Shown here piece by piece: positions 3,318 through 31,321 of a stretch of DNA of 64,000 bases (position 1 is the stretch's first letter; each line of letters opens with the position of its first letter). The notes under the pieces were generated by a model. That model had not been told where the DNA came from. It saw only the letters and a program-made list of their open reading frames with translations, and did not search any database. Both the position numbers and the translations under genes were made by a program. Source of the DNA: Minisyncoccota bacterium (GTDB lineage Bacteria; Patescibacteriota; Minisyncoccia; Phycocordibacterales; UBA9973); assembly GCA_017991395.1 (NCBI GenBank), contig JAGOQQ010000002.1, forward strand, positions 61,925 to 125,924. The letters are read 5' to 3'.

Positions 3318-3503
3318 ATGGCAAAAAAGTCAGTAATTGCACGATCAGAAAAAAAGCCAAAATTTAGCACTCGGTCAAAAAACCGATGTTTTAAGTGTGG
3401 TCGCGGAAATGCGTTCATGCGTGATTTTGGACTTTGTCGTATTTGTTTCCGAGAACTTGCAAACGAAGGAATGATTCCAGGAATTCGCAAATCAAGTTGG
3501 TAG
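3318..3503 (+). CDS. rpsN: 30S ribosomal protein S14 type Z (zinc-binding, 61 aa)
   Basis: 61 aa with the CxxC...CxxC motif ([25 protein letters not shown]), typical of S14 type Z, and spc-operon context. Confidence 0.9.
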
Positions 3504-3505
3504 AC

Positions 3506-3591
3506 CTAAAAGCTGAAAGTTTAAAGTTAAAAGCTTAAAGAAGAAGATTCTAAGCTAAAATTTTAAATCTGAAAGTTAAAAGTATGCTCGT
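3506..3591. repeat. tandem array of A-rich heptads (AAAGCTG/AAAGTTT/AAAGCTT...) between rpsN and rpsH; same family at 4039..4084, 7437..7476, 12714..12749 and 16675..16709
   Basis: aaagctgaaagtttaaagttaaaagcttaaagaagaag... recurs at five intergenic loci. Confidence 0.75.
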
Positions 3592-3631
3592 ATTTTTTAG
3601 ATTACTTATTACTTATTACTAATCACTAGTT

Positions 3632-4021
3632 ATGACAGATCCAATCGGAGCTATGCTCAACATGCTTAAGAATGCAGGGAATGCTGGGAAACCAACAATC
3701 ACTGTTCCATTCTCTAAGATCAAATTCGCGATTGCCGAGTGTTTGAAGGCACAAGGTTATGTCGAATCAGTCTCAAAAAAGACTAAGAAAAATCTTCCGT
3801 ACCTTGAAGTAGGTGTGAAGTTCGAAGGAAATGCTCCTCGAATCAACGAAGTAGCACGTGTGTCAAAACCTTCACGAAGAATGTATATGGGTGTAAAGGA
3901 TATCAAGCCGATGAAGCACGGAAAAGGTATGTTTGTCCTTTCAACACCAAAGGGAATATTACGAGATAAGGATGCCCGCAAGGAAATGGTCGGAGGCGAG
4001 GTGTTGTTTAGTATTTGGTAA
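3632..4021 (+). CDS. rpsH: 30S ribosomal protein S8
   Basis: 129 aa with S8-like sequence and position after S14. Confidence 0.9.
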   Translation: MTDPIGAMLNMLKNAGNAGKPTITVPFSKIKFAIAECLKAQGYVESVSKKTKKNLPYLEVGVKFEGNAPRINEVARVSKPSRRMYMGVKDIKPMKHGKGMFVLSTPKGILRDKDARKEMVGGEVLFSIW

Positions 4022-4038
4022 CAAAAAAAGGGGATAGA

Positions 4039-4084
4039 AAAAGCTAAAAGCTGAAAGTCAAAAGCTGAAAGAAGAAATTCAAAG
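4039..4084. repeat. A-rich heptad array (aaagctaaaagctgaaagtcaaaagctgaaagaagaaa) between rpsH and rplF
   Basis: Same motif family as 3506..3591. Confidence 0.7.
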
Positions 4085-4137
4085 CATAAGGCCAGTCGCT
4101 AGAAGCTTAAAAAATAACTATCCGCTAATAAAAATTT

Positions 4138-4671
4138 ATGTCACGTATAGGAAAACAAATCATACAAATTCCACAAGGAACAGAAGTTACTCTTTCAAAG
4201 GGAATTCTTCGTGTGAAAGGTCCAAAGGGTGAACTCATCAAAGAGTTCAAAGACGACATTGTTGTTACAATTGAAAACAACACAGTCGTATTCGTTCCAA
4301 AAGACAACACTCCATTTTCTCGAGCACTCTGGGGAACATATGCTTCACATGTGAAGAATATGATCAAAGGGGTAAATGAAGCTTTCGTAAAGAAACTTAT
4401 TCTCGAAGGAGTTGGATTCAAATCAGAATCAGACGGGAAGACTCTCAAGCTTGCACTCGGATTTTCACATCCAGTACTCGTTCCAATCACAGATGGTCTC
4501 ACTGTCACAGCTGAAAAAAATATTATTACGGTAACTGGTATTGATAAAGAAATGGTCGGCCAGTTCACAGCGGATGTTCGCGCAATGAAGAAACCAGAAC
4601 CATACAAAGGTAAAGGATTTCGATACGATGGCGAAGTTATCCGACGTAAGCAAGGTAAAAAATCAGCATAA
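4138..4671 (+). CDS. rplF: 50S ribosomal protein L6
   Basis: [19 protein letters not shown]...KGPKGEL is an L6 signature. Confidence 0.9.
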
Positions 4672-4676
4672 CGTTT

Positions 4677-5027
4677 ATGAAAATAACACAGAAAAAAACT
4701 CAAAAGCGAATGCGATTGAAAGCAAAGATTCGAACAAAGATCTTTGGTACAGGTGCTACACCTCGACTTTCAGTCTTTCGTTCAAATACATTTATCTACA
4801 CCCAGCTTATCGATGATGAGAATGGTGTTACGCTTGCATCAGCATCTGATGTTAAGATAAAGAAAGGTACAAAAGTAGAACGCGCAGCACAAGTAGGCGA
4901 AGAGCTTGCAAAGAATGCACTTGCAAAAGGAATTTCAAAAATTGTGTTCGATCGAAATGGTTTCAAATATACAGGTCGTGTATTAGCACTTGCAGAAGGA
5001 GCTCGAAAGGGTGGCTTGCAATTTTAA
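4677..5027 (+). CDS. rplR: 50S ribosomal protein L18
   Basis: 116 aa. PRLSVFRSN...YTQLIDD...[30 protein letters not shown]. Confidence 0.85.
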
Positions 5028-5030
5028 TTT

Positions 5031-5633
5031 ATGGAAACAAACACAACAACTCAAACAAAATCTGGAGCATATGTCGCTCCGTCAGGTGCATCACGTGCAC
5101 CGCGAAGTGGTGGAGGTTTTAGATCTGGAGGCGGACGCTCACCTCGAGCATTTGCAGAAAGACCAAAGCCAGAATTTGATCAAAAAATTCTTTCTATCCG
5201 ACGTGTGACTCGTGTGGTTGCCGGAGGACGACGATTTTCATTTGCAGTATCTATTGCGATTGGAGACAAGAAAGGAGCTATTGGTGTAGGTACAGGAAAA
5301 TCTACTGACACATCACTTGCAATCAACAAAGCAGTTAAGACAGCAAAGAAAAACATGATTCGAATCAAGCTTACAAAAGATGGCTCAATTCCTCATGACG
5401 TCAAAGCAAAATACGCGAGTTCACGAATCTGGCTTATGCCAAACAAGGGACGAGGAATGGTGGCAGGTTCAGCTATTCGAGACATGCTCGTACTTGGAGG
5501 TATTCACAACGTGACTTCAAAAGTACTTTCAGGAAGTAAGAACAAGCTCAATATAGGTCGAGCAACAATAAACGCTCTTTCAGCTTTTGCATTGCCTAAA
5601 AAAGTGGCAGTAGTAAAAGAAGAAGAGAAATAA
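5031..5633 (+). CDS. rpsE: 30S ribosomal protein S5
   Basis: RRVTRVVAGGRRFSFAVSIAIGDKKGAIGVGTGKS...GRGMVAGSAIRDMLVLGGIHNV is the S5 core. Confidence 0.9.
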   Translation: METNTTTQTKSGAYVAPSGASRAPRSGGGFRSGGGRSPRAFAERPKPEFDQKILSIRRVTRVVAGGRRFSFAVSIAIGDKKGAIGVGTGKSTDTSLAINKAVKTAKKNMIRIKLTKDGSIPHDVKAKYASSRIWLMPNKGRGMVAGSAIRDMLVLGGIHNVTSKVLSGSKNKLNIGRATINALSAFALPKKVAVVKEEEK

Positions 5634-5636
5634 TTT

Positions 5637-6074
5637 ATGCAACTTCATACATTAAAGCGAAAGACAAAAAACAAGAAAGATAGAGAAGTGGGACGAGGAG
5701 GCCGACATGCCAAGACTTCAGGTCGTGGAACAAAAGGTCAAAACGCTCGTGCAGGACGAAAGCTCCGACCGCAACTTCGTGATATCATTAAGAAGCTTCC
5801 AAAGCGACGAGGACGAGGAAAGAATGTCAACAAGTCATTTGAAATTCGACCGGCGGCTGTGAGTCTCACAAAGCTTTCAGTATTTTCTGCAAAGGATATT
5901 GTCACAAATACTTCACTCTTTGAAAAAGGAGTTATCCAAAAAGTAAAAGGACGAATTCCACAAGTCAAAATATTGGGAACAGGAACAATCGCAATCGCAG
6001 TCACAGTGACTGGATGTACAGTTTCAAAATCTGCAAAAGAAGCAATTGAAAAAGCTGGAGGAAGCGTGAACTAG
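5637..6074 (+). CDS. rplO: 50S ribosomal protein L15
   Basis: Gly/Arg-rich N-terminus (GRGGRHAKTSGRGTKGQNARAGRKLR). It follows rpsE with a 3-nt gap, so there is no room for L30. Confidence 0.85.
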   Translation: MQLHTLKRKTKNKKDREVGRGGRHAKTSGRGTKGQNARAGRKLRPQLRDIIKKLPKRRGRGKNVNKSFEIRPAAVSLTKLSVFSAKDIVTNTSLFEKGVIQKVKGRIPQVKILGTGTIAIAVTVTGCTVSKSAKEAIEKAGGSVN

Positions 6075-6103
6075 TTCATCATTACTTATGGTAACCATGC
6101 AGG

Positions 6104-7399
6104 ATGGTAACATCTTGCTCAAATAGAATGCGAAACGTATTACACAAACTTCGAATAATTTTTGGTGACAAGTCACTCCGAAACCGTATTTTCTTTACGC
6201 TCGGAGCACTTGTGGTATTTCGACTTCTTTCAGCAATCCCAATTCCAGGAGTTGATCAAAACCAACTCGCAGCATTTCTCGCAAGTAACCAACTTGTTGG
6301 AGTGTTGAATATTTTCTCTGGAGGAGGACTTTCAAATCTTTCTATTATCATGCTTGGAGTAGGAGCATACGTGACATCATCAATCATTATGCAGGTGATG
6401 ACAATCATGTTTCCAAAACTCAAATCAATGTATCAGGAAGAAGGTGAGGCAGGACGAAAGAAATTTACTCAGTACTCTCGAATGCTCACAGTACCACTCG
6501 CTGCGATTCAAGGTTTTGGACTTCTGACTCTTCTTGAAAGACAAGGTGCACTCGGCACAGTGACGACATTTCAAATGATTACAAATCTTTCGATTGTGAT
6601 TGCTGGTGCAATGCTCACAATGTGGATCGGCGAACTCATCTCTGAATACGGTATTGGAAACGGTGTTTCTGTACTTATCTTTGGAGGTATCGTGGCGTCA
6701 TTTCCAACAAGTGTTAGTCAGGCATTGTTTACGTATACTCCGGCAGATTTGCCACTGTACATCGCGTTTGTCCTAGTAGGACTGATTGTGATTGCAGGTG
6801 TGGTGCTCGTGACTGAAGCAGAGCGTCCTATTCCTGTGACGTATGCAAAGCAAGTACATGGAAACCATGTCACAGGTGGAACATCAACATATATTCCACT
6901 TCGACTCACACAAGCGGGAGTTATCCCAATTATTTTTGCGCTCTCAATTCTGTTGTTTCCGCAAATTATTGCAAACTTCTTGGCTGGCTCAACAAATGCG
7001 ATTCTGCTCTCGATTTCAAATTCGATGACAGCGTTTTTGCAAAATCAATTACTTTACGGTGCTGTGTACTTTGTACTTGTATTTCTCTTCACATACTTTT
7101 ATACCGCAGTTACCTTCGATCCAGAATCAATGTCTCACAATCTACAAAAGAATGGAGCGTTTATTCCAGGAGTTCGACCAGGTCAATCTACTGCAGAATA
7201 CGTAAGTAAGATTCTGACACGTGTGACATTGGTAGGAGCACTGTTTCTTGGTGTGATTGCGATCTTGCCACTCATAATGCAAAGCATTACAGGTATTACT
7301 CAAATCGCGCTTGGTGGTACATCACTCTTGATTGTTATCAACGTTGCAGTTGATCTCGTAAAGAAAATTGATGCACAGATTGCAATGAGGGAATACTAG
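6104..7399 (+). CDS. secY: preprotein translocase subunit SecY (true start may be the internal Met at ~6128)
   Basis: 431 aa polytopic membrane protein with SecY motifs (GALVVFRLLSAIPIPGVD, GGLSNLSIIMLGVGAYVTSSIIMQ), located after rplO. Confidence 0.9.
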   Translation: MVTSCSNRMRNVLHKLRIIFGDKSLRNRIFFTLGALVVFRLLSAIPIPGVDQNQLAAFLASNQLVGVLNIFSGGGLSNLSIIMLGVGAYVTSSIIMQVMTIMFPKLKSMYQEEGEAGRKKFTQYSRMLTVPLAAIQGFGLLTLLERQGALGTVTTFQMITNLSIVIAGAMLTMWIGELISEYGIGNGVSVLIFGGIVASFPTSVSQALFTYTPADLPLYIAFVLVGLIVIAGVVLVTEAERPIPVTYAKQVHGNHVTGGTSTYIPLRLTQAGVIPIIFALSILLFPQIIANFLAGSTNAILLSISNSMTAFLQNQLLYGAVYFVLVFLFTYFYTAVTFDPESMSHNLQKNGAFIPGVRPGQSTAEYVSKILTRVTLVGALFLGVIAILPLIMQSITGITQIALGGTSLLIVINVAVDLVKKIDAQIAMREY

Positions 7400-7478
7400 G
7401 GAGCAGTTTATAGCGAATAGGTTTTAGGGAATAGTGAAAAAGCTGAAAGCTAAAAGTTTAAAGTTGAAAGAAGAAATT

Positions 7479-7520
7479 GTGTCATCCTGAACTTGTTTCA
7501 GGATCTCAAAACTATTTTCC
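7479..7520. repeat. palindromic dispersed element GTGTCATCCTGAACTTGTTTCAGGATCTCAAA; reverse-complement copy at 12890..12921, partial copy at 1..25
   Basis: Exact reverse-complement match between 7483-7512 and 12891-12920. Internal hairpin atcctgaa/ttcaggat. Confidence 0.8.
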
Positions 7521-7531
7521 AATCCAATTAC

Positions 7532-7566
7532 AAAAGAGCGGCGCCTAGGGCGCCGCTCTTTTGTAA
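7532..7566. terminator. bidirectional rho-independent terminator (agagcggcgcc-tagg-gcgccgctct), A-run upstream and T-run downstream
   Basis: Perfect 11-bp GC-rich stem followed by ttttg, after secY. Confidence 0.65.
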
Positions 7567-7605
7567 TTAACCCTGTTCCCTTATCACTAATCCCTAATTA
7601 CTCGC

Positions 7606-8211
7606 ATGTGTTATAATGTCGTCATGACATCAAATACCTTTATATTCTTCGGGCGGTCGGGGTGCGGGAAAGGTACTCAGGCCCACCTTTTGCAACAAAA
7701 ACTAGAGCAGGCAGGCGGTAAGGTTCTTTATATCGAAACTGGAGCTAAGTTTCGTGAGTTTATGGAAAAAGGCAACCACACAAGCAATCTTACAAAAGAA
7801 GTCATCGACAATGGTGGTCTTTTGCCAGCGTTTTTGCCGGTGTGGGTGTGGTCAAATTTTTTGATTGAAAATTTTACTGGCACTGAGCATCTTATTCTCG
7901 ACGGATTATCACGACGAGCTTTTGAAGCTCCAATACTTGATTCGATGATTGGTTTCTACAAACGCGATCGACCATATGTGATTTTGATTGATGTGTCTCG
8001 TGAGTGGTCAAAAGAGCGATTGATGGGAAGAAAGCGAGAAGATGATACCGATGAATATATCGAAAGTAGACTCAACTGGTACGACCGCGATGTTGTGCCC
8101 GCGATTGAATATTTTAGAAATCATTCCGGCTATCATTTTGTTGAAGTGAATGGAGAAAAATCAATTGAAGAGGTGCATGATGAGATTGTAAAAAAGCTAG
8201 AAATATTTTAA
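7606..8211 (+). CDS. adk: adenylate kinase (likely start at Met 7624)
   Basis: P-loop FGRSGCGKGTQ, LID-like region, and the conserved secY-adk-map order. Confidence 0.8.
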   Translation: MCYNVVMTSNTFIFFGRSGCGKGTQAHLLQQKLEQAGGKVLYIETGAKFREFMEKGNHTSNLTKEVIDNGGLLPAFLPVWVWSNFLIENFTGTEHLILDGLSRRAFEAPILDSMIGFYKRDRPYVILIDVSREWSKERLMGRKREDDTDEYIESRLNWYDRDVVPAIEYFRNHSGYHFVEVNGEKSIEEVHDEIVKKLEIF

Positions 8212-8214
8212 ACG

Positions 8215-8262
8215 GTCGCGGACCTAACGCGGAAGGTCGCGGAACGGACGCGGAATTTTGCA
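8215..8262. repeat. GCGGA-type short tandem motif cluster (ggtcgcggacctaacgcggaaggtcgcggaacggacgcgga)
   Basis: Same motif family at 17126..17170, 24661..24700 and 25139..25170. Related CGTAGAACG clusters at 19855..19893, 45675..45712, 46088..46180 and 54547..54585. Confidence 0.65.
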
Positions 8263-8291
8263 GCTTACGTTTTACGTATAACTTATCGCCA

Positions 8292-9056
8292 ATGATTATA
8301 ATTAAGACAGAGAAAGAAATAAAAAATCTACGTATCGCCGGAAAACATCTCGGTGAGATTCTTTCAATTCTTGAAAAGGAAATCAAGCCAGGCGTCACAC
8401 CAAAACAGCTCGATGCAAGATCACGAGAGCTCATACAAGAGAGAGGGTGCACACCTGCGTTTCTTGGATACACACCGCATGGAGCACCGCGTCCTTATCC
8501 ATCTGCACTTTGTACTTCTGTAAATAGTGAAGTAGTTCATGGTATTCCCACAAACACACCACTTAAAGAAGGAGATATTATTTCGATTGATCTTGGACTT
8601 TGGTACAACGCCGTGGTGGTGGATTCAGCACGCACAGTTCCTGTTGGGAAAATTTCACCCGAACTTGAAAAGCTTTTACAAATTACACGCGAATCACTCT
8701 ATGTCGGTATACAACAAGCAGTGGCGGGTAATCGCACAGGAGATATAGGAAATGCAATTGAGACGTTCATCAAACCTCATAACTATGGAATTGTGAAAGA
8801 ACTCGCTGGTCACGGAGTGGGACGTGAAATTCATGAAGATCCCTATGTACCAAATTATGGGAAAAAAGGCACAGGGTCACTTTTGAAAGAAAACATGGTT
8901 ATTGCAATTGAGCCAATGATCAATCTTGGGAAAGCAGGCGTAGTGTTCCACAAAGATGGGTACACCGTCACTGCAAAAGACTCTCTTCCAAGTGCACACT
9001 TTGAGCACACCGTACTGATCACAAAAGGTAAACCAGAAATTCTCACAGATTATTAA
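8292..9056 (+). CDS. map: methionine aminopeptidase type I
   Basis: 254 aa with the pita-bread fold metal ligands in context (DLGLWYN...HGVGREIHE...AIEPMI...FEHTVLIT). Confidence 0.85.
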   Translation: MIIIKTEKEIKNLRIAGKHLGEILSILEKEIKPGVTPKQLDARSRELIQERGCTPAFLGYTPHGAPRPYPSALCTSVNSEVVHGIPTNTPLKEGDIISIDLGLWYNAVVVDSARTVPVGKISPELEKLLQITRESLYVGIQQAVAGNRTGDIGNAIETFIKPHNYGIVKELAGHGVGREIHEDPYVPNYGKKGTGSLLKENMVIAIEPMINLGKAGVVFHKDGYTVTAKDSLPSAHFEHTVLITKGKPEILTDY

Positions 9057-9157
9057 ATAATTAGTTAAGTATATGCCAGGAATAGTTGTATTTATTATAC
9101 TTTTTTCACTCGTTGTATTTCTAATAAAGGATTGAACTTGTTATACTTACAGTATCT

Positions 9158-11896
9158 ATGGAAGGTTACCTAAAAGAAGTTCCTCAATTTAATACACCAG
9201 AAGAAGAACTTGCGTATTTGCGTGAGCATGTTTCTCGTCGTGAAAAAGAACTCTATGAAAATGGATTTGAAGCAGAAAAAGCAAAGATAGCACACGAAAC
9301 TCTTCGTTCATATGGAAATATTCCAAAAGCTCAAGCACTAGAACGCAGTCAAATGATACAAGACGGCGAAGCACACGAGATAGTTCTTCGCCTCAAGCCT
9401 GAACCACATGATCACAAAATGGAAGAATTGCTTGGTATTTTACTCGAGCGAGGAATTCGAAATGTTCTTGATATTATAGAAAAATCAAAAAACCCACATC
9501 TTGACGATGACTTCCATCGCTTTTTGGTGCAATATCTTATTTCGTCTGACCAAATACCAGGGTTGAAAGAGGGAACGGAAATTTGGAAATCTCTCCATAT
9601 GAAATTGTTTGAAGTGACTCTCCCAGAAAAATCTGGAAATGACACTCGTGGATTCAAGGATTTTCTCGGAGGAATGGAACAGTTTTTTGCTGGAATGAAT
9701 TCAATTGCTTCAGACAAAGACAATACGAAGAAAAATTATTTTACTATTGAAGTAGCACTTTCAAATCAAAGTGATGAAGTCGTGGTGTATGTGGGTGTGC
9801 CAAATGAAAAGATTGATTTGTTCGAGAAACAATTGAACGCATCATTTCCAAATTCAAAAATCCGCGAAGTCGTGGATGACTACAATGTGTTTATGGAAGG
9901 CGGTGGATCTGCAGGCTCATATGCAGTACTTGAAGAAAGCGAAATTTATCCACTCAAGACTTTTGATACCTTTGATCACGATCCAATTAATGCACTTTTG
10001 AATGCGTTTTCTAAACTCAAAAAAGAAGGCGAGGGAGCGTCAGTACAGTTTGTGATTGCACCGACCGGGACTACTCACATCAAGCGATTTCAGGATGTAC
10101 TTAAACATGTTGAAAAAGGTCTTTCCGCAAAAGATGCTCTCAAAAAAACTTCAAGCGCAATCGATGATGCACTTATTGAGATCGGAAAAGGATTATTTTT
10201 TGGACATACTTCAAACAAGGACGAAAAAGAACCACCAAAAATAGATGACCGCACAATCAAGCGAATTACAGAAAAAATGAAAGCGACGATGGTGCTTTCA
10301 AATATCCGCATAATTTCTGGTGCTCGTGATGTTGTTCGAGCAGAACAAATAGTGGCAGAAATTGCGTCATCATTCAATCAGTTTACCGAAGCAGGAAGCA
10401 ATAGTCTTGTCTGGAAAAAAGTTGAGGGAAATTCTGCAAAGGAACTTTTTCATATGTTTTCATATCGCATTTTTGACGATTCAAAAAAGCTGGTGCTCAA
10501 TCTCCACGAGCTCTCAACTATGATTCATTTTCCATATGGCATCACCAGCGCACCACAGCTCAAGCAAGCACGTGCGGGTACTGCATCAGCACCACTTGAA
10601 CTTATTGGCGAAGGGACGCTCCTTGGTGTCAATCGTTTTCGAGGATTTGAAACTCCGGCATATCTGACAAAGGAAGATCGCGTGAGACATTTTTATTGTA
10701 TTGGACAAACCGGTACTGGTAAGACGACTCTATTGAAAAATATGATAGTCCAAGATATCGAAGCAGGCCACGGTGTGTGTTATATTGATCCGCACGGAAA
10801 TGATATCCAAGATATTCTTGCTTCTATTCCACGAGAGCGTATTGATGATGTGATTTATTTTGACCCCGCATACACAGCTCGACCAATGGGTCTCAACATG
10901 CTCGAATACGATCCACGATTTCCTGAACAAAAAAGTTTTGTGGTGGATGAGATGCTTTCGATTTTCAATAAGCTTTTTGATATGAAAACTGCGGGAGGTC
11001 CTATGTTTGAACAATACTTCAGAAACGCTACGATGCTCGTACTTGAAGATCCAGAAAGTGGAAATACACTTCTTGATATTTCACGCGTGCTTGCAGATGA
11101 AAAATTTCGCGCGCTCAAACTATCAAAGTGCACCAATCCGGTAATCCTTCAGTTTTGGAATAATATTGCAGGGAAGGCAGGAGGTGAAGCGTCTCTTCAA
11201 AACATCGTCCCTTATATCGTCTCAAAATTTGACGTGTTTCTATCAAATGAAATAATGCGTCCGATTGTTGCTCAAGAAAAATCCGTATTTAATTTTCGAG
11301 AAATTATGGATAACAAAAAGATTTTGCTTGTGAATCTCTCAAAGGGTCGTCTCGGTGAAATCAATTCGAGCTTGCTCGGACTTGTGATTGTAGGAAAAAT
11401 TTTGATGTCGGCACTTTCTCGCACGGATGCGATGGGACAAAAGCTCAATGATTTTTATTTGTATATTGATGAATTCCAAAATGTGACCACAAACTCAATT
11501 TCACAAATTCTTTCTGAAGCACGAAAATATAGACTTTCGCTCAATATCGCTCACCAATACATTGGTCAACTTGAAGAGGGAATCAAAAATGCGGTGTTTG
11601 GAAACGTCGGATCAATGGCAGTATTTCGTGTTGGACCAGACGACGCAAAATATCTTGAAGCACAGCTTGCTCCGGTATTTTCATCTGATGATATTATTAA
11701 GCTCGAAAATAGAAATGCGTATTTGAAACTTCTTGTGAATGGTCAACCAGTAAAACCATTTAATATAGAAACACTTCGCCCGCCAGAAGGTCGCCCGGAA
11801 ATTATCGACAAGCTGAAAGAGCTTTCATACCTCACATACGGACGCGACAGAGCTGAGGTAGAGGAAGAAGTGGCGCGTAGATATCGAGCACTCTAA
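9158..11896 (+). CDS. 912-aa cytoplasmic FtsK/HerA/VirD4-superfamily P-loop ATPase (T4SS coupling-protein-like, TraG-D_C-like C-terminus) with no predicted TM segments
   Basis: Walker A GQTGTGKTT at roughly aa 515. Walker B YLYIDEFQN followed by ARKYRLSLNIAHQYIGQL, as in TraD/TraG/VirD4 C-terminal domains. The ~480-aa N-terminal region is soluble with no recognisable motif. Confidence 0.5.
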   Translation: MEGYLKEVPQFNTPEEELAYLREHVSRREKELYENGFEAEKAKIAHETLRSYGNIPKAQALERSQMIQDGEAHEIVLRLKPEPHDHKMEELLGILLERGIRNVLDIIEKSKNPHLDDDFHRFLVQYLISSDQIPGLKEGTEIWKSLHMKLFEVTLPEKSGNDTRGFKDFLGGMEQFFAGMNSIASDKDNTKKNYFTIEVALSNQSDEVVVYVGVPNEKIDLFEKQLNASFPNSKIREVVDDYNVFMEGGGSAGSYAVLEESEIYPLKTFDTFDHDPINALLNAFSKLKKEGEGASVQFVIAPTGTTHIKRFQDVLKHVEKGLSAKDALKKTSSAIDDALIEIGKGLFFGHTSNKDEKEPPKIDDRTIKRITEKMKATMVLSNIRIISGARDVVRAEQIVAEIASSFNQFTEAGSNSLVWKKVEGNSAKELFHMFSYRIFDDSKKLVLNLHELSTMIHFPYGITSAPQLKQARAGTASAPLELIGEGTLLGVNRFRGFETPAYLTKEDRVRHFYCIGQTGTGKTTLLKNMIVQDIEAGHGVCYIDPHGNDIQDILASIPRERIDDVIYFDPAYTARPMGLNMLEYDPRFPEQKSFVVDEMLSIFNKLFDMKTAGGPMFEQYFRNATMLVLEDPESGNTLLDISRVLADEKFRALKLSKCTNPVILQFWNNIAGKAGGEASLQNIVPYIVSKFDVFLSNEIMRPIVAQEKSVFNFREIMDNKKILLVNLSKGRLGEINSSLLGLVIVGKILMSALSRTDAMGQKLNDFYLYIDEFQNVTTNSISQILSEARKYRLSLNIAHQYIGQLEEGIKNAVFGNVGSMAVFRVGPDDAKYLEAQLAPVFSSDDIIKLENRNAYLKLLVNGQPVKPFNIETLRPPEGRPEIIDKLKELSYLTYGRDRAEVEEEVARRYRAL

Positions 11897-11959
11897 GTTT
11901 GATTTTGTACGTGATTGTATGGTAGGATACACACACTTATTCAATAATTCATATTTGTT

Positions 11960-12436
11960 ATGTCACAACCAATTCACGAGAGGTCTTTAATAATCATCAA
12001 GCCAGATGCAGTTCAACGAAACCTAATCGGCGAGATAATCAGTCGTTTTGAAAGAAAAGGATTGAAAGTAATTGGTCTAAAAATGATGAGTGTTGAAGAC
12101 GCGACACTAGAAGAACATTACTCACACATTAAAGATAAACCATTTTTCCCAGGCATTCGAGATTTTATGAAATCATGTCCTGTGGTGGTGATGGCGCTTG
12201 AAGGTATCAATGCAGTATCATCAATTCGTATTCTCGTTGGTCCAACCAAAGCATGGGAGGCAGACGCGGGAACAATTCGAGGAGATTTCTCTCTTTCAAC
12301 TCAATCAAATATTGTGCACGCATCTGATTCTGTAGAAAATGGTCTTATTGAAGTTGATCGATTTTTCAAGAAAGAAGAACTCTTTGTATACAAGAAAATT
12401 GATATCGATTTTGTGTACGCTGAACACAAAGAATAG
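11960..12436 (+). CDS. ndk: nucleoside diphosphate kinase
   Basis: ERSLIIIKPDAVQRNLIGEIISRFERKGLKVIGLKMM...NIVHASDS is the NDK signature including the active-site His region. Confidence 0.9.
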   Translation: MSQPIHERSLIIIKPDAVQRNLIGEIISRFERKGLKVIGLKMMSVEDATLEEHYSHIKDKPFFPGIRDFMKSCPVVVMALEGINAVSSIRILVGPTKAWEADAGTIRGDFSLSTQSNIVHASDSVENGLIEVDRFFKKEELFVYKKIDIDFVYAEHKE

Positions 12437-12529
12437 CATTAGGCTTTAGAGTATATTTTTTGAAACATTTTTACTCGTGTGTACAGATTGCGTCCAATTG
12501 TAGATTTTGTATATACTTAAGGTACGGTT

Positions 12530-12700
12530 ATTTGGAAAAATTACCTAGAAACAATATCACTATGGGAACTTGGAATGGACGCATTCCTAATGTAGTACAC
12601 CACTTTGGTGATGTACTCAGGTGCCCACCTAGCTTTCATGCTAAGGTAATTTTACCCAGATAGCCGTAAGAAAAAACTGTCGCGCAAGCGACAGTTTTTT
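12530..12700 (+). ncRNA. candidate structured RNA: long-range helix (aaattacct / aggtaattt) enclosing three hairpins, ending in an intrinsic terminator
   Basis: ggaaaaattacctag (12537-12551) pairs with ctaaggtaattttaccc (12640-12656). Internal hairpins ggaatg-gacg-cattcc, agtacaccac-tttg-gtgatgtact and ggtg-cc-cacc. Terminator aaaaaactgtcgc-gcaa-gcgacagtttttt at 12671-12700. Confidence 0.3.
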
Positions 12701-12790
12701 CTAATAACCACCAAGCTCAAAGTTTAAAGCTGAAAGCTAAAAGAAGAAAAATATAGTATCTAGCTTTGCATTTAGTGAATCACTGAATTG

Positions 12791-12836
12791 AAGCCTCCCC
12801 TTGAGGGGAGGTGTCCGAAGGACGGAGGGGTAAGGA
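12791..12836. repeat. double-hairpin dispersed element (cctcccc-ttga-ggggagg then tccgaaggacgga then ggggtaag); copy at 54591..54634, degenerate copy at 2921..2953
   Basis: Near-identical palindromic sequence at three intergenic sites. Confidence 0.7.
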
Positions 12837-12889
12837 AACAGGTTATAGCAAATAGTTTATAGGTGATAAAGAAATACAAATAAATACAT

Positions 12890-12921
12890 TTGAGATCCTG
12901 AAACAAGTTCAGGATGACACG
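12890..12921. repeat. reverse-complement copy of the 7479..7520 palindromic element
   Basis: Exact match seen by direct comparison. Confidence 0.8.
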
Positions 12922-12994
12922 GAATCCTGAATTTTCCTATTTCCTACTACCTACTTATTATTTCCTATAATCTTTATGTTAAACTATATCCATA

Positions 12995-13420
12995 ATGACA
13001 GTACAGAAACGAATTTTGACAGAAATATTCCTTCTCATTGCGGGTATTTTTTTGGTAAATATCATGGCAATGAAATTTCATTGGTATAGTATCGTATGGT
13101 GGTTTGATATGCCGATGCACACGCTCGGAGGAATGTGGATTGCGCTTACGAGTCTTTTTGTATACAAATATCGCCGTACGACATACGATGATATTACAAA
13201 CCCAAAAAAGTTGTTTTTTGTTGCACTCATCTGTGTGATCATAATCGGATTACTCTGGGAAATTTTTGAGTTTGGGATGGAGACGGTGGGCACTCTAGAT
13301 CTTGCTAATCCTATTGATTCAATTTCTGATCTATGTTTTGACTTGGTTGGTGGCGTTGTAGGGACAATGTATTTTATTTACAAATATGAACGTGTCATAA
13401 AATCAATAGACAAGGTATAA
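12995..13420 (+). CDS. small aromatic-rich integral membrane protein, function unknown
   Basis: 141 aa with about four hydrophobic helices and no recognisable motif. Confidence 0.4.
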   Translation: MTVQKRILTEIFLLIAGIFLVNIMAMKFHWYSIVWWFDMPMHTLGGMWIALTSLFVYKYRRTTYDDITNPKKLFFVALICVIIIGLLWEIFEFGMETVGTLDLANPIDSISDLCFDLVGGVVGTMYFIYKYERVIKSIDKV

Positions 13421-13427
13421 TAAAAGT

Positions 13428-14798
13428 ATGGAATCAGAAAAAAAGTTGAAACTCACATTTTGTGCGGGCGCTGGCTCTGTAACCGGAGCGAATTTTCTTT
13501 TGGAAGGCGAGGGTAAAAAATTTCTTATTGATTGTGGTCTGACACAAGGGACAAAAATGGCGGAGGAGGTAAACTGGGAAGATTTTTCATATGATCCGAA
13601 AACTATAGATATTCTTTTTATTACACACGCACACATTGACCACATCGGGCGTATCCCAAAACTCTATCATGATGGATTTCGAGGACGAATCATCTCGACC
13701 GATGCTACAAAAGACATAGTGTTGCCGATGTTGCTTGATACATGTGGAATACTTTCAAAAGACAAAGAACGTGGACTTGATACGATTTATGATGAGACCA
13801 AAGTAAAAAACATTTTGCATCTTTGGGAAGGCGTGCCCTATCATCAAAAAATCAATATTGATCATGGCTTCCAAATGACACTTAAAGACTCAGGACACAT
13901 TCTCGGCTCTGCAATGCTTGAGATAGCCTACAACGGTAAAAGGATTGTATTTACAGGTGACTTGGGAAATTCGCCGTCGCCACTACTTCGTGACACTGAA
14001 GAACTCACCGATGTTGATTATTTGATAATGGAATCTGTGTACGGAGATAGAAATCATGAATCACGTGATGAAAGAAAAAAGCGTCTTGAGGCGGTGATAG
14101 AAGACAATTTCAATCGAAAAGGTGCACTCGTGATACCAACATTTTCACTCGAGAGAAGTCAGGAGCTTTTGTATGAAATAAATGATTTTGTGGAAGACAA
14201 ACGTATTCCATTTATGCCCGTATATTTTGATTCACCACTTGCGATCGAGCTCACAAAAGTCTACAAAAATTATACAAAGTATTTCAATGAAGAAGCACAA
14301 TCACGAATAAAGGGAGGGGATGATATTTTTAAATTTCCAGGTCTTCGTGTGACTGCAGAAACTGAAGAATCAAAAAGAATTTTTGGTGAACCAAATCCAA
14401 AAATAATCATCGCCGGTTCTGGTATGTCAAACGGCGGACGAATCATTCACCACGAAAAGCATTATTTGCCAGACCCAGACAGCACACTTCTTTTGATCGG
14501 GTACCAATCTGTGGGGACGCTCGGTAGGCTTATTGAAGACGGCGAGAAGGAAGTCAGAATCAATGGTGAAATGATTTCAATCAAAGCAAAAATCGAGAAA
14601 ATTAGTGGCTATTCCGGGCACAAGGATTCTGACCACTTGATTGAATTTGTAGAGAAAATGGCAGATAAAGTGAAGCGGGTGTATGTGGCAATGGGTGAAC
14701 CAAAATCATCATTGTTTCTTGCTCAGAGGCTTCGGGATTATCTTGGTGTAGAGGCATATGCGCCGGAACAAGGTCAGGTGGTAGAATTAGAATGTTAA
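13428..14798 (+). CDS. MBL-fold metallo-hydrolase of the beta-CASP family (RNase J/CPSF-like RNA-processing nuclease)
   Basis: HxHxDH motif (ITHAHIDHIG) and beta-CASP layout (GDLGNSPSP...MESVYGDRNHE...GYSGHKDSDHL). Confidence 0.7.
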   Translation: MESEKKLKLTFCAGAGSVTGANFLLEGEGKKFLIDCGLTQGTKMAEEVNWEDFSYDPKTIDILFITHAHIDHIGRIPKLYHDGFRGRIISTDATKDIVLPMLLDTCGILSKDKERGLDTIYDETKVKNILHLWEGVPYHQKINIDHGFQMTLKDSGHILGSAMLEIAYNGKRIVFTGDLGNSPSPLLRDTEELTDVDYLIMESVYGDRNHESRDERKKRLEAVIEDNFNRKGALVIPTFSLERSQELLYEINDFVEDKRIPFMPVYFDSPLAIELTKVYKNYTKYFNEEAQSRIKGGDDIFKFPGLRVTAETEESKRIFGEPNPKIIIAGSGMSNGGRIIHHEKHYLPDPDSTLLLIGYQSVGTLGRLIEDGEKEVRINGEMISIKAKIEKISGYSGHKDSDHLIEFVEKMADKVKRVYVAMGEPKSSLFLAQRLRDYLGVEAYAPEQGQVVELEC

Positions 14799-14802
14799 AA
14801 CT

Positions 14803-15402
14803 ATGGAAGAGAACACAAAGCACAATCATCTAAAATTAAAATTGGGAGTATCAGGTGCAGCCGAAACGGGACACTGTGGTATTGACGCACTTTCAAAGGC
14901 AAAAGAGCTCGGACGGGAGATTGTTCGTCAGGGTGGAATTCTTGTCACTGGTGCGACTACTGGATTTCCTCTGTGGTCTGCGATGGGAACAAAAGAAGAA
15001 CGAGGAATATCAATCGGCCTTTCGCCTGCATCAAATGAACGAGAACATGTGGGTGTGTATCGACTTCCGCTTGATTATATGGATTTGATTGTCTATACAG
15101 GGTTTGGATTTCCTGGAAGAGATCTTCTCTTTACACGCTCGTGTGATGCCTTGTTTGTAGGATGTGGACGAATTGGTACTATTCACGAGTTTACTATCGC
15201 GTTCGAGGACAACAAGCCTATTGGGGTACTTGAAGGAAGCTGGGACATGGATGAGACCATCAAAGATATTCTTTCAAAAGGCCATCGTCCAAATGACAAA
15301 ATTGTGTTTGATTCTGACCCAAAACGTCTTGTAGAAAAAGTCATCGCACTTGTGCTCAAGGACAAGGTAGACGAATACAAAACTATCTCAAACGATAAAT
15401 AA
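14803..15402 (+). CDS. LOG/TIGR00725-family Rossmann-fold protein (SLOG, lysine-decarboxylase-like)
   Basis: GVSGAAETGHCG...GGILVTGATTG...IVYTGFGFPGRD pattern as in TIGR00725/LOG proteins. Confidence 0.5.
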   Translation: MEENTKHNHLKLKLGVSGAAETGHCGIDALSKAKELGREIVRQGGILVTGATTGFPLWSAMGTKEERGISIGLSPASNEREHVGVYRLPLDYMDLIVYTGFGFPGRDLLFTRSCDALFVGCGRIGTIHEFTIAFEDNKPIGVLEGSWDMDETIKDILSKGHRPNDKIVFDSDPKRLVEKVIALVLKDKVDEYKTISNDK

Positions 15403-15431
15403 AAAAAATCCCTCGAAAGAGGGATTTTTTT
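15401..15431. terminator. bidirectional intrinsic terminator (aaaaaaaatccctc-gaaa-gagggattttttt) between convergent genes
   Basis: Perfect hairpin flanked by an A-run and a T-run. Confidence 0.75.
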
Positions 15432-15774
15432 ATGAGAGAGATTTTACAACTCGTTCAAATGATGAAGGATTGTTTTCTGCCAAGTCAGCAAGAATTTTTC
15501 GATCTACACCAATTGATTTCTTTGTAAGAATATCAATAAATTTTGAGTATGAGTATCCAAGTGGTCGAAGTGCTGCATTGATCTTGACTTGCCAGAGGCG
15601 TCGTCGGTCAGACTTCTTGTCTCGTCGGTGAGCAAAGGCATGAGTTCCAGCGTGAAGGAGTGCTGTCTTTGCTTCGATTTCCTTTGTTCCTCGTCCAAAT
15701 CGGAATCCTTTTACTCTTTTTAGAATGTTTCGGCGTCGCTTGAGAGCGGTCACGCCTCGTTTTACTCGTGTCAT
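15430..15774 (-). CDS. rplT: 50S ribosomal protein L20
   Basis: TRVKRGVTALKRRRNILKRVKGFRFGRGT...LHAGTHAFAHRRDKK. Confidence 0.9.
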   Translation of the reverse strand: MTRVKRGVTALKRRRNILKRVKGFRFGRGTKEIEAKTALLHAGTHAFAHRRDKKSDRRRLWQVKINAALRPLGYSYSKFIDILTKKSIGVDRKILADLAENNPSSFERVVKSLS

Positions 15775-15806
15775 ATACTAGTTGATAAGTGATTTATAAT
15801 AATTGG

Positions 15807-16001
15807 TTATTTTACACCAGGAAGCATTCGGCTTTTTGCCTTTGGTTTGATACTAAAATCTGTTGCTACTCGTCCTCCGAGTTGTGTTGCGCGAGATTGT
15901 TTTGCATTGAAGTGGTTGAACCCAGGCTTTCGTGCCTTGATCTTGCCATTCTTTGTGACCTTCAAGCGTTTTGAATATGATTTGTTGGTTTTGATACTCA
16001 T
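15807..16001 (-). CDS. rpmI: 50S ribosomal protein L35
   Basis: 64 aa basic protein in infC-rpmI-rplT context. Confidence 0.85.
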   Translation of the reverse strand: MSIKTNKSYSKRLKVTKNGKIKARKPGFNHFNAKQSRATQLGGRVATDFSIKPKAKSRMLPGVK

Positions 16002-16036
16002 AAATGTTTCTTTAACTTTGGATTTGTGTCTCGTAA

Positions 16037-16549
16037 TTATTTTTTACTTTCTTTCTCGAGTGTTACCATGAGGCCTTTTGGACTTCGTTTAACCGGTTCG
16101 GAAATTTTGTAATGCTCAGTAATAAGGTGAAGTACTCGATCGAGTCTTTCTCTCAAGAAGTCTTCCTTCATGTATTTCGCTCTTCCTGCAAGGAAAAGTT
16201 CAACTTTGATTCGGTGACCTTCTTTCAACCACTGTGATGCCCGTTTTGCTTTGAGTTCAAGATCATGATCACCTGTGGCGATTTTGATTTGGATAGATTT
16301 TGTTTCTGTTGTCTTTGCTCCTGCTTTGGCCTTTTTTTGTTTCTTATTTTCGAGATATTGGTACTTACCAAAGTCCATAATCTTTGCGATTGGTGGGTTG
16401 GTGGTTGCCGAAATTTCAATAAGATCAAGACCTTTTGTTTGTGCAAGAGAAAGAGCCTCTTCTCGAGATAATACCCCGAGATTGTTTCCTTCATCATCTA
16501 TGATACGAAGCTGTAAGGCGCGTATTTGGTTGTTTATTCGTTCCTTCAA
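16037..16549 (-). CDS. infC: translation initiation factor IF-3
   Basis: INNQIRALQLRIIDDEGNNLGVLSREEALSLAQTKGLDLIEIS...GKYQY... is an IF3 N- and C-domain pattern. Confidence 0.85.
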   Translation of the reverse strand: MKERINNQIRALQLRIIDDEGNNLGVLSREEALSLAQTKGLDLIEISATTNPPIAKIMDFGKYQYLENKKQKKAKAGAKTTETKSIQIKIATGDHDLELKAKRASQWLKEGHRIKVELFLAGRAKYMKEDFLRERLDRVLHLITEHYKISEPVKRSPKGLMVTLEKESKK

Positions 16550-16674
16550 CGTAAATTAAAAAATCGTGAGACACGATTACCTTGGCTTTCATAATAGCGA
16601 ATTTAAGCCTGAAAGTCAAATCGATTGGGCAGGCCATAGGGGGGGGGATAGTTTATAGGGGATAGGCGAGGGAG

Positions 16675-16709
16675 CTCAAAGCTAAAAGTTTAAAGCTGAA
16701 AGAAGAAAA
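16675..16709. repeat. A-rich heptad array (gctcaaagctaaaagtttaaagctgaaagaagaaaaa)
   Basis: Same family as 3506..3591. Confidence 0.7.
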
Positions 16710-17062
16710 ATGCGGTCTTTGGTGGATTTTCCCCTCCTGCCAAGGAGGTGAGAAAGTGTGGGACACTTTCGCAAGACCTTTTGAGATAGATTTCGAACTC
16801 GTGAAGAAATATATCCAAAAGGTATACAGCTTCTGTAAGAAGTGCCTGAAAGGCGGGGTGGTTCCTCTCCTAGACAGGTGAGCTTGGGAGAGGGACCCAA
16901 GCGCAAGTACTTTTGAGATTTTATTGGAGGTACTTCGAACAATAAAATCCAAAAGTTAAACAGTTTCTGTAAGAAAAGGACGACACGAAGTGACTGGTGA
17001 GGTTGTTTGAATACTCTATACATATACACCACCCCGTCGCTTCGCGCCACCCCTCCTTGAAA

Positions 17063-17128
17063 AGTAGGGGAAGAAATACAACTAAATTCTAAAGACTAAC
17101 TACTAAAGACTTTCTTCTCCTTCTGCGT
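17063..17128. repeat. second copy of the ~66 bp dispersed repeat seen at 3031..3096
   Basis: Direct comparison shows a few mismatches only. Confidence 0.7.
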
Positions 17129-17190
17129 CCGTTCCGCGTAGGTCTGCGTTTAGTCCGCGACTTCCGCGATTTGTGTGTTAGATTTGAGAT

Positions 17191-31317: not shown

Positions 31318-31321
31318 AGAT

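Follow-up and report, generated by a model that had tools for sequence, protein, structure and literature searches.

The DNA analysed here, hereafter the window, is a 64,000-nucleotide (nt) stretch of a Paceibacteria (Minisyncoccota) genome, taken from contig JAGOQQ010000002.1, and the subject is a set of short repeats that occupy its intergenic spacers, including those inside the spc operon of ribosomal-protein genes. The window has a GC content of 40% and a cumulative GC skew that climbs steadily. Gene names were assigned by Pfam on contigs identical to the window (contig L123 for rpsN, rpsH, and rplF) and from syntenic relatives, and the genes and repeat features are collected in Table 1. 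Intergenic DNA amounts to approximately 6.6 kb, that is, approximately 10% of the window, and a Shine-Dalgarno core (4 nt, at −20 to −4) was present in only 2 of its 70 genes. The repeats constitute a mosaic of three kinds: heptad arrays, in which a degenerate unit recurs every 7 nt; a hairpin of the type of the Neisseria NTS and the Ssn-related motifs (SRM); and small GC-rich double hairpins. They were restricted to intergenic DNA, with one exception in a coding sequence described below. The copy counts cover the window plus approximately 5 kb of genome, the largest contig of which measures 424 kb.

Six modules, (a) to (f), had been described in an initial annotation, and the recurring modules were found far above chance in the window. 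The sequence AAAGYNNAAAGYTNAAAGAAGAA of module (a) occurs exactly at 3523, 4054, 7453, 12726, and 16685, always on the + strand, with none expected from 100 shuffles. As a 43-nt family, module (a) has five copies with 72–88% identity to the reference, and a sixth, weaker A-rich array lies at 3555–3582. The placement of A-rich arrays between rpsN and rpsH and between rpsH and rplF was borne out by Pfam on the identical contig L123. The 31-mer GTGTCATCCTGAACTTGTTTCAGGATCTCAA of module (b) is exact at 7479 (+) and 12890 (−), with none expected from shuffles, and the partial copy proposed at the window start is 85% complementary to 12882–12907. For module (c), a 40-nt pattern matched exactly at 12794 and 54596 with none expected, while 2921–2953, initially counted as a third copy, resembles it only partially. 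The pattern first written for module (d) gave 2 matches versus 1.25 expected, as its variable part is 2 nt and not 1. Rewritten as AGTTTATAGNNRATA, it gave 5 matches versus 0.18 expected (7405, 12840, 12854, 12959 on the − strand, and 16650), and the coordinates initially assigned to it were 1–10 nt off. The two proposed copies of module (e) are 93% identical over 71 nt, with similarity reaching approximately 110 nt, and the two parts of module (f) at 8215–8255 and 17121–17161 are 80% complementary. Moreover, GTAGAACG arrays of the (f) group lie at 19860, 45677, 46089, 46140, and 54547. An unbiased comparison of the 6-mers in intergenic DNA with those in coding DNA brought up the same motifs, namely GGGGAGG, GAACGT/GTAGAAC, AAGCTA, TACTAA, and TTATAG. 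The repertoire, likened at first to repetitive extragenic palindromic (REP) sequences and miniature inverted-repeat transposable elements (MITE), was thus real by shuffle controls. It is also not confined to the window, since its modules recur in sister genomes, frequently at different loci.

The initial annotation had overlooked the 7-nt period of most modules, the nature of module (b) as an NTS/SRM-type hairpin, and a candidate GIY-YIG gene in the window. The autocorrelation of the intergenic DNA exceeded that of shuffles at lags of 7 (z = 10.4), 14 (z = 5.9), and 21 nt (z = 5.6), and the coding DNA of the window had no lag-7 signal and only the usual period of 3. In a sliding test, in which a heptad segment was defined by at least 16 of 21 matches at lag 7, 12 segments were detected, all of them intergenic, and shuffles yielded none; lags of 5, 6, and 9–11 gave essentially no segments by the same test. 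The segments total 453 nt, approximately 7% of the intergenic DNA. Tandem Repeats Finder reported short period-7 arrays of AAAGCTG, ACTAAAG, ATTACTT, TCCCTAA, TTTCCTA, CTACTAA, GTAGAAC, CTACTCA, and GTTAATA units. Degenerate heptad arrays account for modules (a) and (d), for parts of (e) and (f), and for a pyrimidine-rich set that had not been annotated (3595, 7571, 12933, 44403, and 54653). An invariant core of 3–4 nt (AAAG or TAG) returns every 7 nt, the other positions are variable, and the arrays consist of 4–6 units and are never perfect. At 7405–7478, modules (d) and (a) are one unbroken array with every unit ending in AG. The five (a) copies have a single format, 4–5 AAAG units followed by a GAAGAAA end, which fits the copying of the whole module.

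The arrays are also placed regularly. All five pyrimidine-rich arrays end 0–35 nt 5' of a start codon on the same strand, and the purine-rich arrays at 3504, 4037, 7405, and 54547 begin 1–16 nt past stop codons. Stop codons in all three frames were found in 5 of 13 arrays versus 7% of background 33-mers; a function in putting stops in all three frames is suggestive, not compelling. The nested element at 54547–54690 has outer arms that pair, with a fold z of −3.54 (54547–54695) and none of 200 shuffles folding as well, and the array at 62082–62137 has a partly complementary pyrimidine-rich counterpart before the next start codon. Among the (f)-group arrays, those at 45677–46172 flank a gene of the 23S-rRNA-intervening-sequence (IVS) type (PF05635, bAvd-like; 45714–46067), with GTAGAACG on its 5' side and the reverse complement on its 3' side, an arrangement suggestive of a small cassette with inverted arrays of the heptad type at its ends. 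The sole coding array found, CGCGGACTTGA × 2.5 (period 11, related to (f)), lies at 24673–24699 within an open reading frame (ORF) of 884 amino acids (aa) (23833–26487).

Module (b) is oriented, with GTC before its 8-bp palindrome and C after it, and in this respect it has the anatomy of the NTS and SRM. The Neisseria NTS is CGTCATTCCCGCGMAVGCGGGAATCYRG, with the variant NTSvar CGTCATACTCGGGNNNNNCCCGAGTATC, and SRM are the wider class of motifs that, in single-stranded DNA, are bound and cleaved by single-domain GIY-YIG nucleases (Chenal et al. 2025, PMC11893778). In the NTS, cutting depends critically on the three nucleotides that precede the palindrome and binding on the C after it, and SsnA makes its cut upstream by a few nucleotides, within the variable flank (PMC11893778). 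Two complete copies and one partial copy of module (b) are present in the 64 kb. Short-read contigs from three samples and the sister contig L131 end inside the hairpin, as expected of a multi-copy repeat. The hairpin is also found outside this lineage. A scan of IMG/VR with the 23-nt core of (b) identified 24 contigs of 28–71% GC, in which the core nearly always has GT before it and T or C after it, with sibling hairpins of the same frame nearby. With BLAST, the 25-mer was found unchanged on plasmids of Sphingobium, Novosphingobium, and Sphingomonas and nearly unchanged in Sulfurovum and Treponema, and on a Sphingobium plasmid it stands as an inverted doublet beside a strict-SRM doublet. Within the window, three consecutive TCCTGAA/TTCAGGA segments (ATCCTGAA..TTCAGGAT..ATCCTGAA) occur at 12882–12934, and thus the hairpin can pair there in two alternative ways. 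A comparable set of three segments (CCTCCCC/GGGGAGG/GGAGGGG) is present in module (c).

A Pfam scan of small ORFs identified a gene for an 80-aa protein (MYYSYIIQSKKDNTFYYGHTDDLKKRLSEHNSGY...) that matches the GIY-YIG domain (PF01541, E = 7.6e-16) over residues 1–70 of 80. It is a single-domain protein within the approximately 80–100 aa typical of the Ssn family, and the YSY and YYG motifs and E62 stand at the positions expected of the catalytic Tyr, Tyr, and Glu (Y6, Y17, and E64 in SsnA). The gene lies 6–12 kb from the complete (b) copies. The protein is 40% identical to the product of a Shinella GIY-YIG gene (pairwise E = 4e-11) and 37.7% identical to that of a related Rhizobium gene (tblastn). 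Both of these genes have strict SRM on both sides, CGTCATCCTCGGGCTTGACCCGAGGATCC and CGTCATCCCAGGGCTTGACCCTGGGATCC, which have ATCC...CTTG...GGATC in common with module (b). The 80-aa protein is a candidate Ssn-type partner of module (b).

Changes between the copies of module (c) are compensatory and keep its hairpins, namely GTCC/GGAC versus GCCC/GGGC versus GCCCC/GGGGC and CCTCCCC/GGGGAGG versus CCTTCCC/GGGAAGG. These changes were read directly from the sequences, as a MAFFT alignment of seven copies did not keep the 5' arm in register. A metagenome scan with the (c) pattern returned four loci, too few for covariation statistics. Over the window, Rfam at gathering thresholds reported tmRNA and tRNAs only, and permissive E-values added terminator-like chance matches and a sub-threshold whalefall-1 (RF01762). 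The latter scored 22.3 bits at 12791–12837 and 15–17 bits at 54578–54632, below the gathering threshold of 37 bits. Module (c) is similar to whalefall-1 in that a CUCCCC...GGGGAG hairpin is followed by a purine-rich GGGGUAAGGA box, but its second hairpin is unlike the model. The double hairpin at 28–65, a variant of the (c) family, has an intact relative in the infC/truB spacer of L128. A further hairpin-ended element (AAAACATTGCGCAAGG...TTTTTCAGCAGAAAAATA...CGTGTTTT) lies at 100–190 and recurs inverted in the non-orthologous adk/map spacer of L128; it is an extra member of the mosaic that had not been noted before. The terminator hairpin at 7523–7562 is an ordinary feature embedded in the mosaic.

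Table 1. Genes and repeat features of the window (positions in the 64,000-nt stretch).
Feature	Position	Strand	Basis or remark
Partial module (b), cut by window edge	1–26	+	85% complementary to 12882–12907
Compact double hairpin, variant (c) family (ccctcctgccaaggcgggg + tgcctgaaaggcgg)	28–65	+	21-mer 45–65 identical to 16842–16862
Peptidoglycan-binding-domain gene	844–2733		Pfam
Partial (c)-like hairpin ccccttgcgggggagggccgaagcc	2921–2953	+	read directly; partial match only
Module (e): hairpin GGGGAAGAAA...TTTCTTCTCC, loop of ACTAAAG heptads	3028–3098	+	93% to 17062–17132; period 7
rpsN	3318–3503		Pfam
A-rich AAAGNNN heptad arrays (3506–3548, 3555–3582)	3504–3591	+	start 3 nt past rpsN stop
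Pyrimidine-rich heptads ATTACTT/ATTACTA	3595–3631	+	end at rpsH start codon; last 20 nt identical in L126
rpsH	3632–4021		Pfam
rpsH/rplF element: GGGGATAG, A-rich array 4037–4079, CTATCC closing outer stem	4031–4124	+	fold z = −1.67
rplF, then rplR, rpsE, rplO	4138–4671 (rplF)		Pfam
secY	to 7399		Pfam
Heptad array (d) into (a), NNNATAG to AAAGNNN	7405–7478	+	begins 6 nt past secY stop
Module (b): NTS/SRM-like hairpin GTC-ATCCTGAA-CTTGT-TTCAGGAT-C	7479–7509	+	exact 31-mer
Intrinsic-terminator-like hairpin of secY transcript (caaaagagcggcgcc...ggcgccgctcttttg)	7523–7562	+	kept in L128
Pyrimidine-rich heptads TCCCTAA/TCACTAA, 5' of adk	7571–7605	+	partly complementary to 7405–7436 (read directly)
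adk, then map, DUF8128	from 7606		Pfam
Module (f): GCGGA-type array, period 11/21	8215–8255	+	complementary to 17121–17161
ndk	to 12436		Pfam
A-rich heptad array right behind terminator	12709–12751	+	pattern match, lag-7 test
Module (c): GC-rich double hairpin + GGAGGGGTAA tail	12791–12836	+	exact pattern, fold, alignment
Module (d) heptads, two adjoining AGNTTATAG units	12840–12870	+	pattern match
Composite: purine-rich heptads (GGAAATA ATAAGTA GGTAGTA ...), then hairpin (b)	12890–12968	−	homologous to L131 secY/adk element
DUF2238 gene, then beta-CASP nuclease, LDcluster4 protein	from 12995		Pfam
rplT, rpmI, infC	to 16549	−	Pfam
(d) + (a) as single heptad array, infC/truB divergent spacer	16640–16710	+	orthologous to L128 copy
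Double hairpin, variant (c) family, split by ~95 nt extra DNA versus L128 and 28–65	16727–16862	+	21-mer repeat
Module (e), second copy	17062–17132	+	absent from orthologous L128 spacer
Module (f), reverse complement of 8215–8255	17121–17161	+	kept 5' of truB in L128
truB	from 17191		Pfam
80-aa single-domain GIY-YIG protein gene, candidate Ssn-type partner of (b)	19059–19301	−	Pfam scan of small ORFs
GTAGAACG array	19860–19883	+	repeat search
Pyrimidine-rich CTACTAA heptads	44403–44434	+	end 4 nt 5' of start codon
GTAGAACG array	45677–45700	+	13 nt 5' of 23S-rRNA-IVS-type protein gene
CGTTCTAC arrays (reverse complement of GTAGAACG)	46089–46172	+	directly 3' of 23S-rRNA-IVS-type gene
Nested element: GTAGAAC heptads, (c) at 54591–54635, CTACTCA/CTAATCA heptads	54547–54690	+	ends at start codon
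GTTAATA/GATGGTT heptad array behind terminator	62082–62137	+	lag-7 test

The window was compared with syntenic loci of relatives, whose SecY identity to the window is 94% in L131, 92% in L130, 90% in L126 and L127, 89% in L128, and 78% in L129. The rpsH/rplF spacer is 116 nt long in the window and 11 nt in L126, L128, and L130, in all three of which the element at 4031–4124 is absent. In L129, this spacer has 95 nt and contains a different, GGGAATA-type element. The rpsN/rpsH spacer measures 128 nt in the window, 63 in L126, 85 in L128, and approximately 97 and 99 in L130 and L129, respectively; the rplF/rplR spacer is 5 nt in the window, L126, L128, and L130, and 124 nt in L129. Likewise, secY and adk are separated by 206 nt in the window and by 95, 111, 112, and 126 nt in L126, L128, L130, and L129, respectively, and infC and truB by 641 nt in the window and 352 nt in L128. 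The spc arrays are thus insertions relative to L126, L128, and L130, and as these close relatives lack the modules at the same sites, the ribosomal-protein operon does not inherently include them.

In L128, L129, and L130, the elements are hairpins with a heptad arm rich in purines (AAAGCTC... or GGGAATA/GGTGATA...), followed by a loop and a complementary pyrimidine-rich arm. The 5' purine arm lies past the upstream stop codon and the 3' pyrimidine arm ends right before the next start codon. The L129 hairpins fold with z values of −2.98 (rpsN/rpsH), −3.02 (rpsH/rplF), and −6.74 (rplF/rplR), and the nested window element at 54547–54690 takes a fold of the same form. Since such a palindromic element reads purine-first on both strands, the polarity belongs to the element itself, whichever way it is oriented. 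Other modules occupy non-orthologous sites in different genomes. Module (c) lies in the ndk/DUF2238 spacer and at 54591 in the window, in the adk/map spacer of L128, and in the DUF8128/ndk spacer of L129. The composite of heptads and (b) is found past secY in L131 and inverted 5' of the DUF2238 gene in the window (approximately 80% identity over approximately 75 nt). The infC/truB spacer of L128 keeps (d), (a), and an unsplit double hairpin, and in the window the double hairpin is split by approximately 95 nt and followed by further insertions including module (e), which is duplicated in the window and missing from the orthologous L128 spacer. Modules were accordingly gained, lost, and moved, and this lineage-specific turnover argues against a conserved role in the spc operon.

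Considering the repeats together with the relatives, the Paceibacteria spacers have probably been colonised by a mosaic of small non-coding repeats that are lineage-specific selfish or neutral DNA and not conserved regulatory parts of the spc operon. Heptad arrays would be born and altered through replication slippage and template switching, and whole modules of 40–110 nt would be copied to new intergenic sites. Sites in or beside existing hairpins and terminators would be the preferred targets, which would give rise to nested mosaics. The arrays may persist because heptad units rich in stop triplets would be tolerated only outside genes and would be nearly neutral there. Such a mosaic would be analogous to the Neisseria intergenic mosaic elements (NIME) and the bacterial interspersed mosaic elements (BIME) of enterobacteria.

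Several results weigh against this explanation. Every (a) and (b) copy lies within the first 17 kb of the window, and the copy counts are limited to the scope given above. Short same-species contigs from several samples match the window with 100% identity, across the arrays as well, and lack the hypervariable copy numbers that active slippage should produce. The invariant AAAG/TAG core, the constant length of module (a), and the + orientation of all its copies could reflect selection for a binding array. No target-site duplication was recognisable at the rpsH/rplF insertion on comparison with the 11-nt spacer of ancestral type, and no transposase was found among 20 small ORFs scanned, which was not a systematic search. 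As neither terminal inverted repeats with target-site duplications nor a module-linked transposase were seen, mobility is inferred from genome comparison only. The strict SRM pattern HGTCWYN(0-2)YYVSBRHN(0-5)WNVSBRGN(0-2)RNCYNB had no match in the window, and strict SRM were found by the same search in the Shinella, Rhizobium, and Sphingobium loci; module (b) fails the pattern because its AT-rich stem violates the V/S positions. Moreover, the nearest solved relatives of the 80-aa protein are the UPF0213 proteins BH0048 and EF2693, so that it is a candidate for Ssn membership only. No (b)-type hairpin stands beside its gene in the window, and the partnership of nuclease and hairpin is therefore plausible but unproven.

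The similarities might instead be chance in low-complexity, AT-rich intergenic DNA, without any repeat family. Single arrays are indeed short and degenerate, the (d) pattern as originally written was not above chance, and approximately half of the A-rich matches listed from other genomes fall in Lys/Glu-rich coding sequence. However, the exact matches to (a), (b), and (c) (5, 2, and 2 versus 0 in shuffles), the 12 heptad segments, the lag-7 autocorrelation, and duplicates that are 93–100% identical across 31–71 nt leave this explanation with a negligible probability, and a chance origin was refuted by the shuffle controls. A functional role deserves more weight. The initial annotation had proposed that the A-rich arrays act as translational spacers, enhancers, or RNA-binding sites, and in a wider form heptad arrays would be functional RNA elements in a genome without Shine-Dalgarno pairing. 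The G-poor pyrimidine arrays by start codons would be unstructured landing pads for proteins such as S1 or cold-shock-domain proteins, which bind approximately 6–7 nt each. The purine arrays would pair with the pyrimidine ones, and a ribosome terminating upstream would melt the hairpin and couple the next cistron. The scarcity of Shine-Dalgarno cores (2 of 70 genes) points in this direction, since long intra-operon spacers must be bridged somehow, as do the positions of all five pyrimidine-rich arrays before start codons and of the four purine-rich arrays past stop codons. The L129 hairpins run exactly from stop codon to start codon within a ribosomal-protein operon, the (a) copies combine a conserved core and variable positions with constant length and sense orientation, and TAACTGA heptamers upstream of starts in Beggiatoaceae are a published parallel (PMC4679880). 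The arrays are probably part of the operon mRNA, as no terminator-like site was found within the rpsN/rpsH and rpsH/rplF spacers and the promoter scan was uninformative. A reading of the pyrimidine-rich heptads as reiterated −10 boxes was dropped with that scan (31 found, 33 expected). Against a functional role, relatives with 89–92% identical SecY have 11-nt or 3–5-nt spacers at the same junctions, and the arrays are thus dispensable. The A-rich arrays adjoin the stop codon of the upstream gene rather than the start codon of the downstream one, and there are also copies at 12709, behind a terminator, and at 16668, in a divergent spacer. The RNA fold of the rpsN/rpsH spacer is no better than shuffles (z = 0.21), its arms not being complementary, and the pyrimidine array at 12933–12968 is the reverse complement of the purine flank of the inverted (b) element. 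Consequently, the proposal for the A-rich arrays was unsupported. Heptad arrays as RNA elements are unlikely overall, and a role in Shine-Dalgarno-independent initiation or coupling is a minority possibility.

The arrays could also be by-products of Ssn-type nicking 5' of (b) followed by slipped repair, with array-hairpin composites spreading together. The SsnA cut site in the variable flank upstream of the NTS agrees with this (PMC11893778). The 49 nt 5' of (b) are heptad-periodic in all three complete copies of the lineage (7479, 12890 on the − strand, and L131), with lag-7 identity of 0.55–0.62 and 7 as the best period, and the composite of array and hairpin is common to non-orthologous sites. 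However, among 28 occurrences of this hairpin in other taxa, not one had a heptad-periodic 5' flank, by which heptads were ruled out as a general flank of (b). Most arrays of the window (3504, 4037, 12709, 16668, 44403, 54547, and 62082) do not adjoin (b), and AAAG-type arrays in other phyla were seen without the hairpin. Nicking as the cause of the heptads is therefore not supported outside this lineage and is very improbable overall. A broader functional class was considered as well. In species-representative genomes, a scan with the A-rich pattern gave at least 117 loci, and at least 33 of these were noncoding among the matches listed (no overlapping open frame of 100 codons or more). Among the same matches, noncoding AAAG arrays occurred in Acidobacteriota, Bacteroidota, Cyanobacteria (Nostoc and Chamaesiphon), Deinococcales, and Patescibacteria including Saccharibacteria. 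They were often followed by a small hairpin and a complementary CTTT-type array, with pairing to a downstream versus an upstream partner in 18 versus 6 cases (approximately 3:1). Hairpins of the form (AAAGNNN)n-loop-(NNNCTTT)n may be a functional cross-phylum class and not debris of slippage, periodic arrays for a conserved single-strand nucleic-acid binder with a footprint of approximately 7 nt (such as a cold-shock-domain protein or S1), although this is rather doubtful. If true, heptad-armed hairpins would organise translation re-initiation and coupling at operon junctions without Shine-Dalgarno initiation, and the class would give a mechanism for the long-noted heptanucleotide excess of bacteria.

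Returning to the mosaic of mobile or neutral repeats, its constituents have close parallels in known systems. An excess of heptanucleotide repeats in bacteria has been described as long simple sequence repeats (SSR; Mrazek et al. 2007) and, in cyanobacteria, as short tandemly repeated repetitive sequences (STRR; Mazel et al. 1990), both studies being cited after PMC4692102 and PMC4679880, and Xanthomonas and Nostoc have GGGAATC repeats (PMC4692102). The window arrays are similar in being period-7, head-to-tail, intergenic units with several unit families per genome and some inverted pairs able to form stem-loops, and in varying between close relatives; polymerase slippage is the origin proposed for the known repeats, which have no accepted function. 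They differ in being short, imperfect, and built on an invariant 3–4-nt core, in their purine 5'/pyrimidine 3' polarity, in being joined to other hairpin modules, and in their host, a Paceibacteria genome of a few hundred kb. Long near-perfect arrays with isolate-variable copy number were absent, and variation was seen only between species-level relatives. TAACTGA heptamers occur in marine Beggiatoaceae, some Cyanobacteria, and Bacteroidetes, directly 5' of starts and also within ribosomal-protein operons, and S1, Csp, and CsrA have been proposed as binders (MacGregor 2015, PMC4679880). G-poor heptads by start codons, ribosomal-protein junctions, hosts mostly without ribosome-binding sites, and stop triplets in the units are common to both cases. 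However, the window units (TTACTAA, CTACTTA, and AACTTTA) are degenerate and not one exact heptamer, they have purine-rich partner arrays, and close relatives lack them at the same junctions. The AAAG arrays of other phyla fit the heptamer over-representation and the STRR, GGGAATC, and TAACTGA cases published so far, and no report of heptads in Patescibacteria was found in the literature.

Module (b) resembles the NTS/SRM-Ssn system and the Neisseria dRS3/NIME elements (PMC11893778), as it is oriented, recurrent, intergenic, and set within repeat mosaics. The window likewise has a single-domain GIY-YIG gene of similar size (80 aa versus 94 aa in N. meningitidis), and the same hairpin stands beside strict SRM in sphingomonads. 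In contrast, (b) fails the degenerate SRM pattern and has only two complete copies and one partial copy in the 64 kb, the nuclease gene of the window has no flanking hairpins, and its product is a candidate for cd10448 only. Short palindromic intergenic units in varied combinations and orientations, often nested and at operon junctions and terminators, are also typical of the REP/BIME of enterobacteria, the REPINs of Pseudomonas (PMC3116915), and MITE. Unlike these, no RAYT or transposase, GTAG-type head, terminal inverted repeat with target-site duplication, or REPIN-style doublet was seen in the window, in what was not a systematic search. Thus, the mosaic is NIME/BIME-like and composed of known kinds of repeat, in a genome nearly without Shine-Dalgarno use.

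Other observations were made along the window. A TATAAT-like box lies 6–12 nt 5' of the ATG in many of the 70 genes, which suggests that leaderless or very-short-leader mRNAs are widespread in the host. The spc cluster is interrupted 5' of rpsN (2734–3317), with no rplE before rpsN. The upstream neighbour of rpsN is a Wzy_C gene in L126, L128, and L130 and the peptidoglycan-binding-domain gene in the window. A structured rpsN leader (approximately 3190–3317) with its own TTGACA-17-TAGTAT promoter-like site is kept in the window and these three relatives. A stretch of approximately 180 nt 3' of ndk (12520–12700) has ends that pair (GGTACGGTTATTTGG...CCAGATAGCCGTAA) and is closed by a terminator. 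It is kept in all sister loci (L126, L128, and L129), unlike the spacer around it, and matched no Rfam family, permissive E-values included; from these features it looks like a small structured RNA gene. A 66-nt direct repeat (22980–23045 and 23197–23262, 98% identical, 217 nt apart) contains the 3' end of tRNA-Ile(TAT) and a hairpin and resembles an att-site remnant left by an integrative element that was excised or has decayed. Two pairs of inverted repeats lie at 30079–30293/32271–32485 (215 nt, 97%) and 32469–32588/33993–34112 (120 nt, 100%), the second arm of the latter overlapping a tRNA-Ser gene (34107–34195). A 516-aa large serine recombinase (32610–34160), a helix-turn-helix protein, and a nucleotidyltransferase are encoded within these repeats, and 30079–34195 may be an integrated or invertible element. 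Finally, a perfect period-8 tandem array, (AAAACCTC) × 4.4, lies directly 5' of a gene at 53303–53337; as the sole perfect microsatellite-like array of the window, it is probably young.

Genomes of the candidate phyla radiation are held to be streamlined. Here, the mosaic takes a measurable share of scarce intergenic DNA, with the heptad arrays alone occupying approximately 7% and the other modules adding to this, and it separates ribosomal-protein cistrons that relatives hold 3–11 nt apart. A Paceibacteria genome is thereby tied to two known repeat systems, the heptanucleotide repeats and the NTS/SRM hairpin with its Ssn nucleases. The Neisseria NTS/SRM-Ssn system modulates natural transformation, and DNA uptake is thought to be important in the candidate phyla radiation. 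If module (b) is cut by the 80-aa protein, this radiation too would have Ssn-type control of incoming single-stranded DNA, and there would be a biochemical reason for the occurrence of an exact 25-nt AT-rich hairpin across genomes of 28–71% GC. Moreover, near-identical operons that carry or lack arrays at the rpsN/rpsH/rplF junctions offer a natural experiment on the translation of cistrons that lack Shine-Dalgarno sequences.

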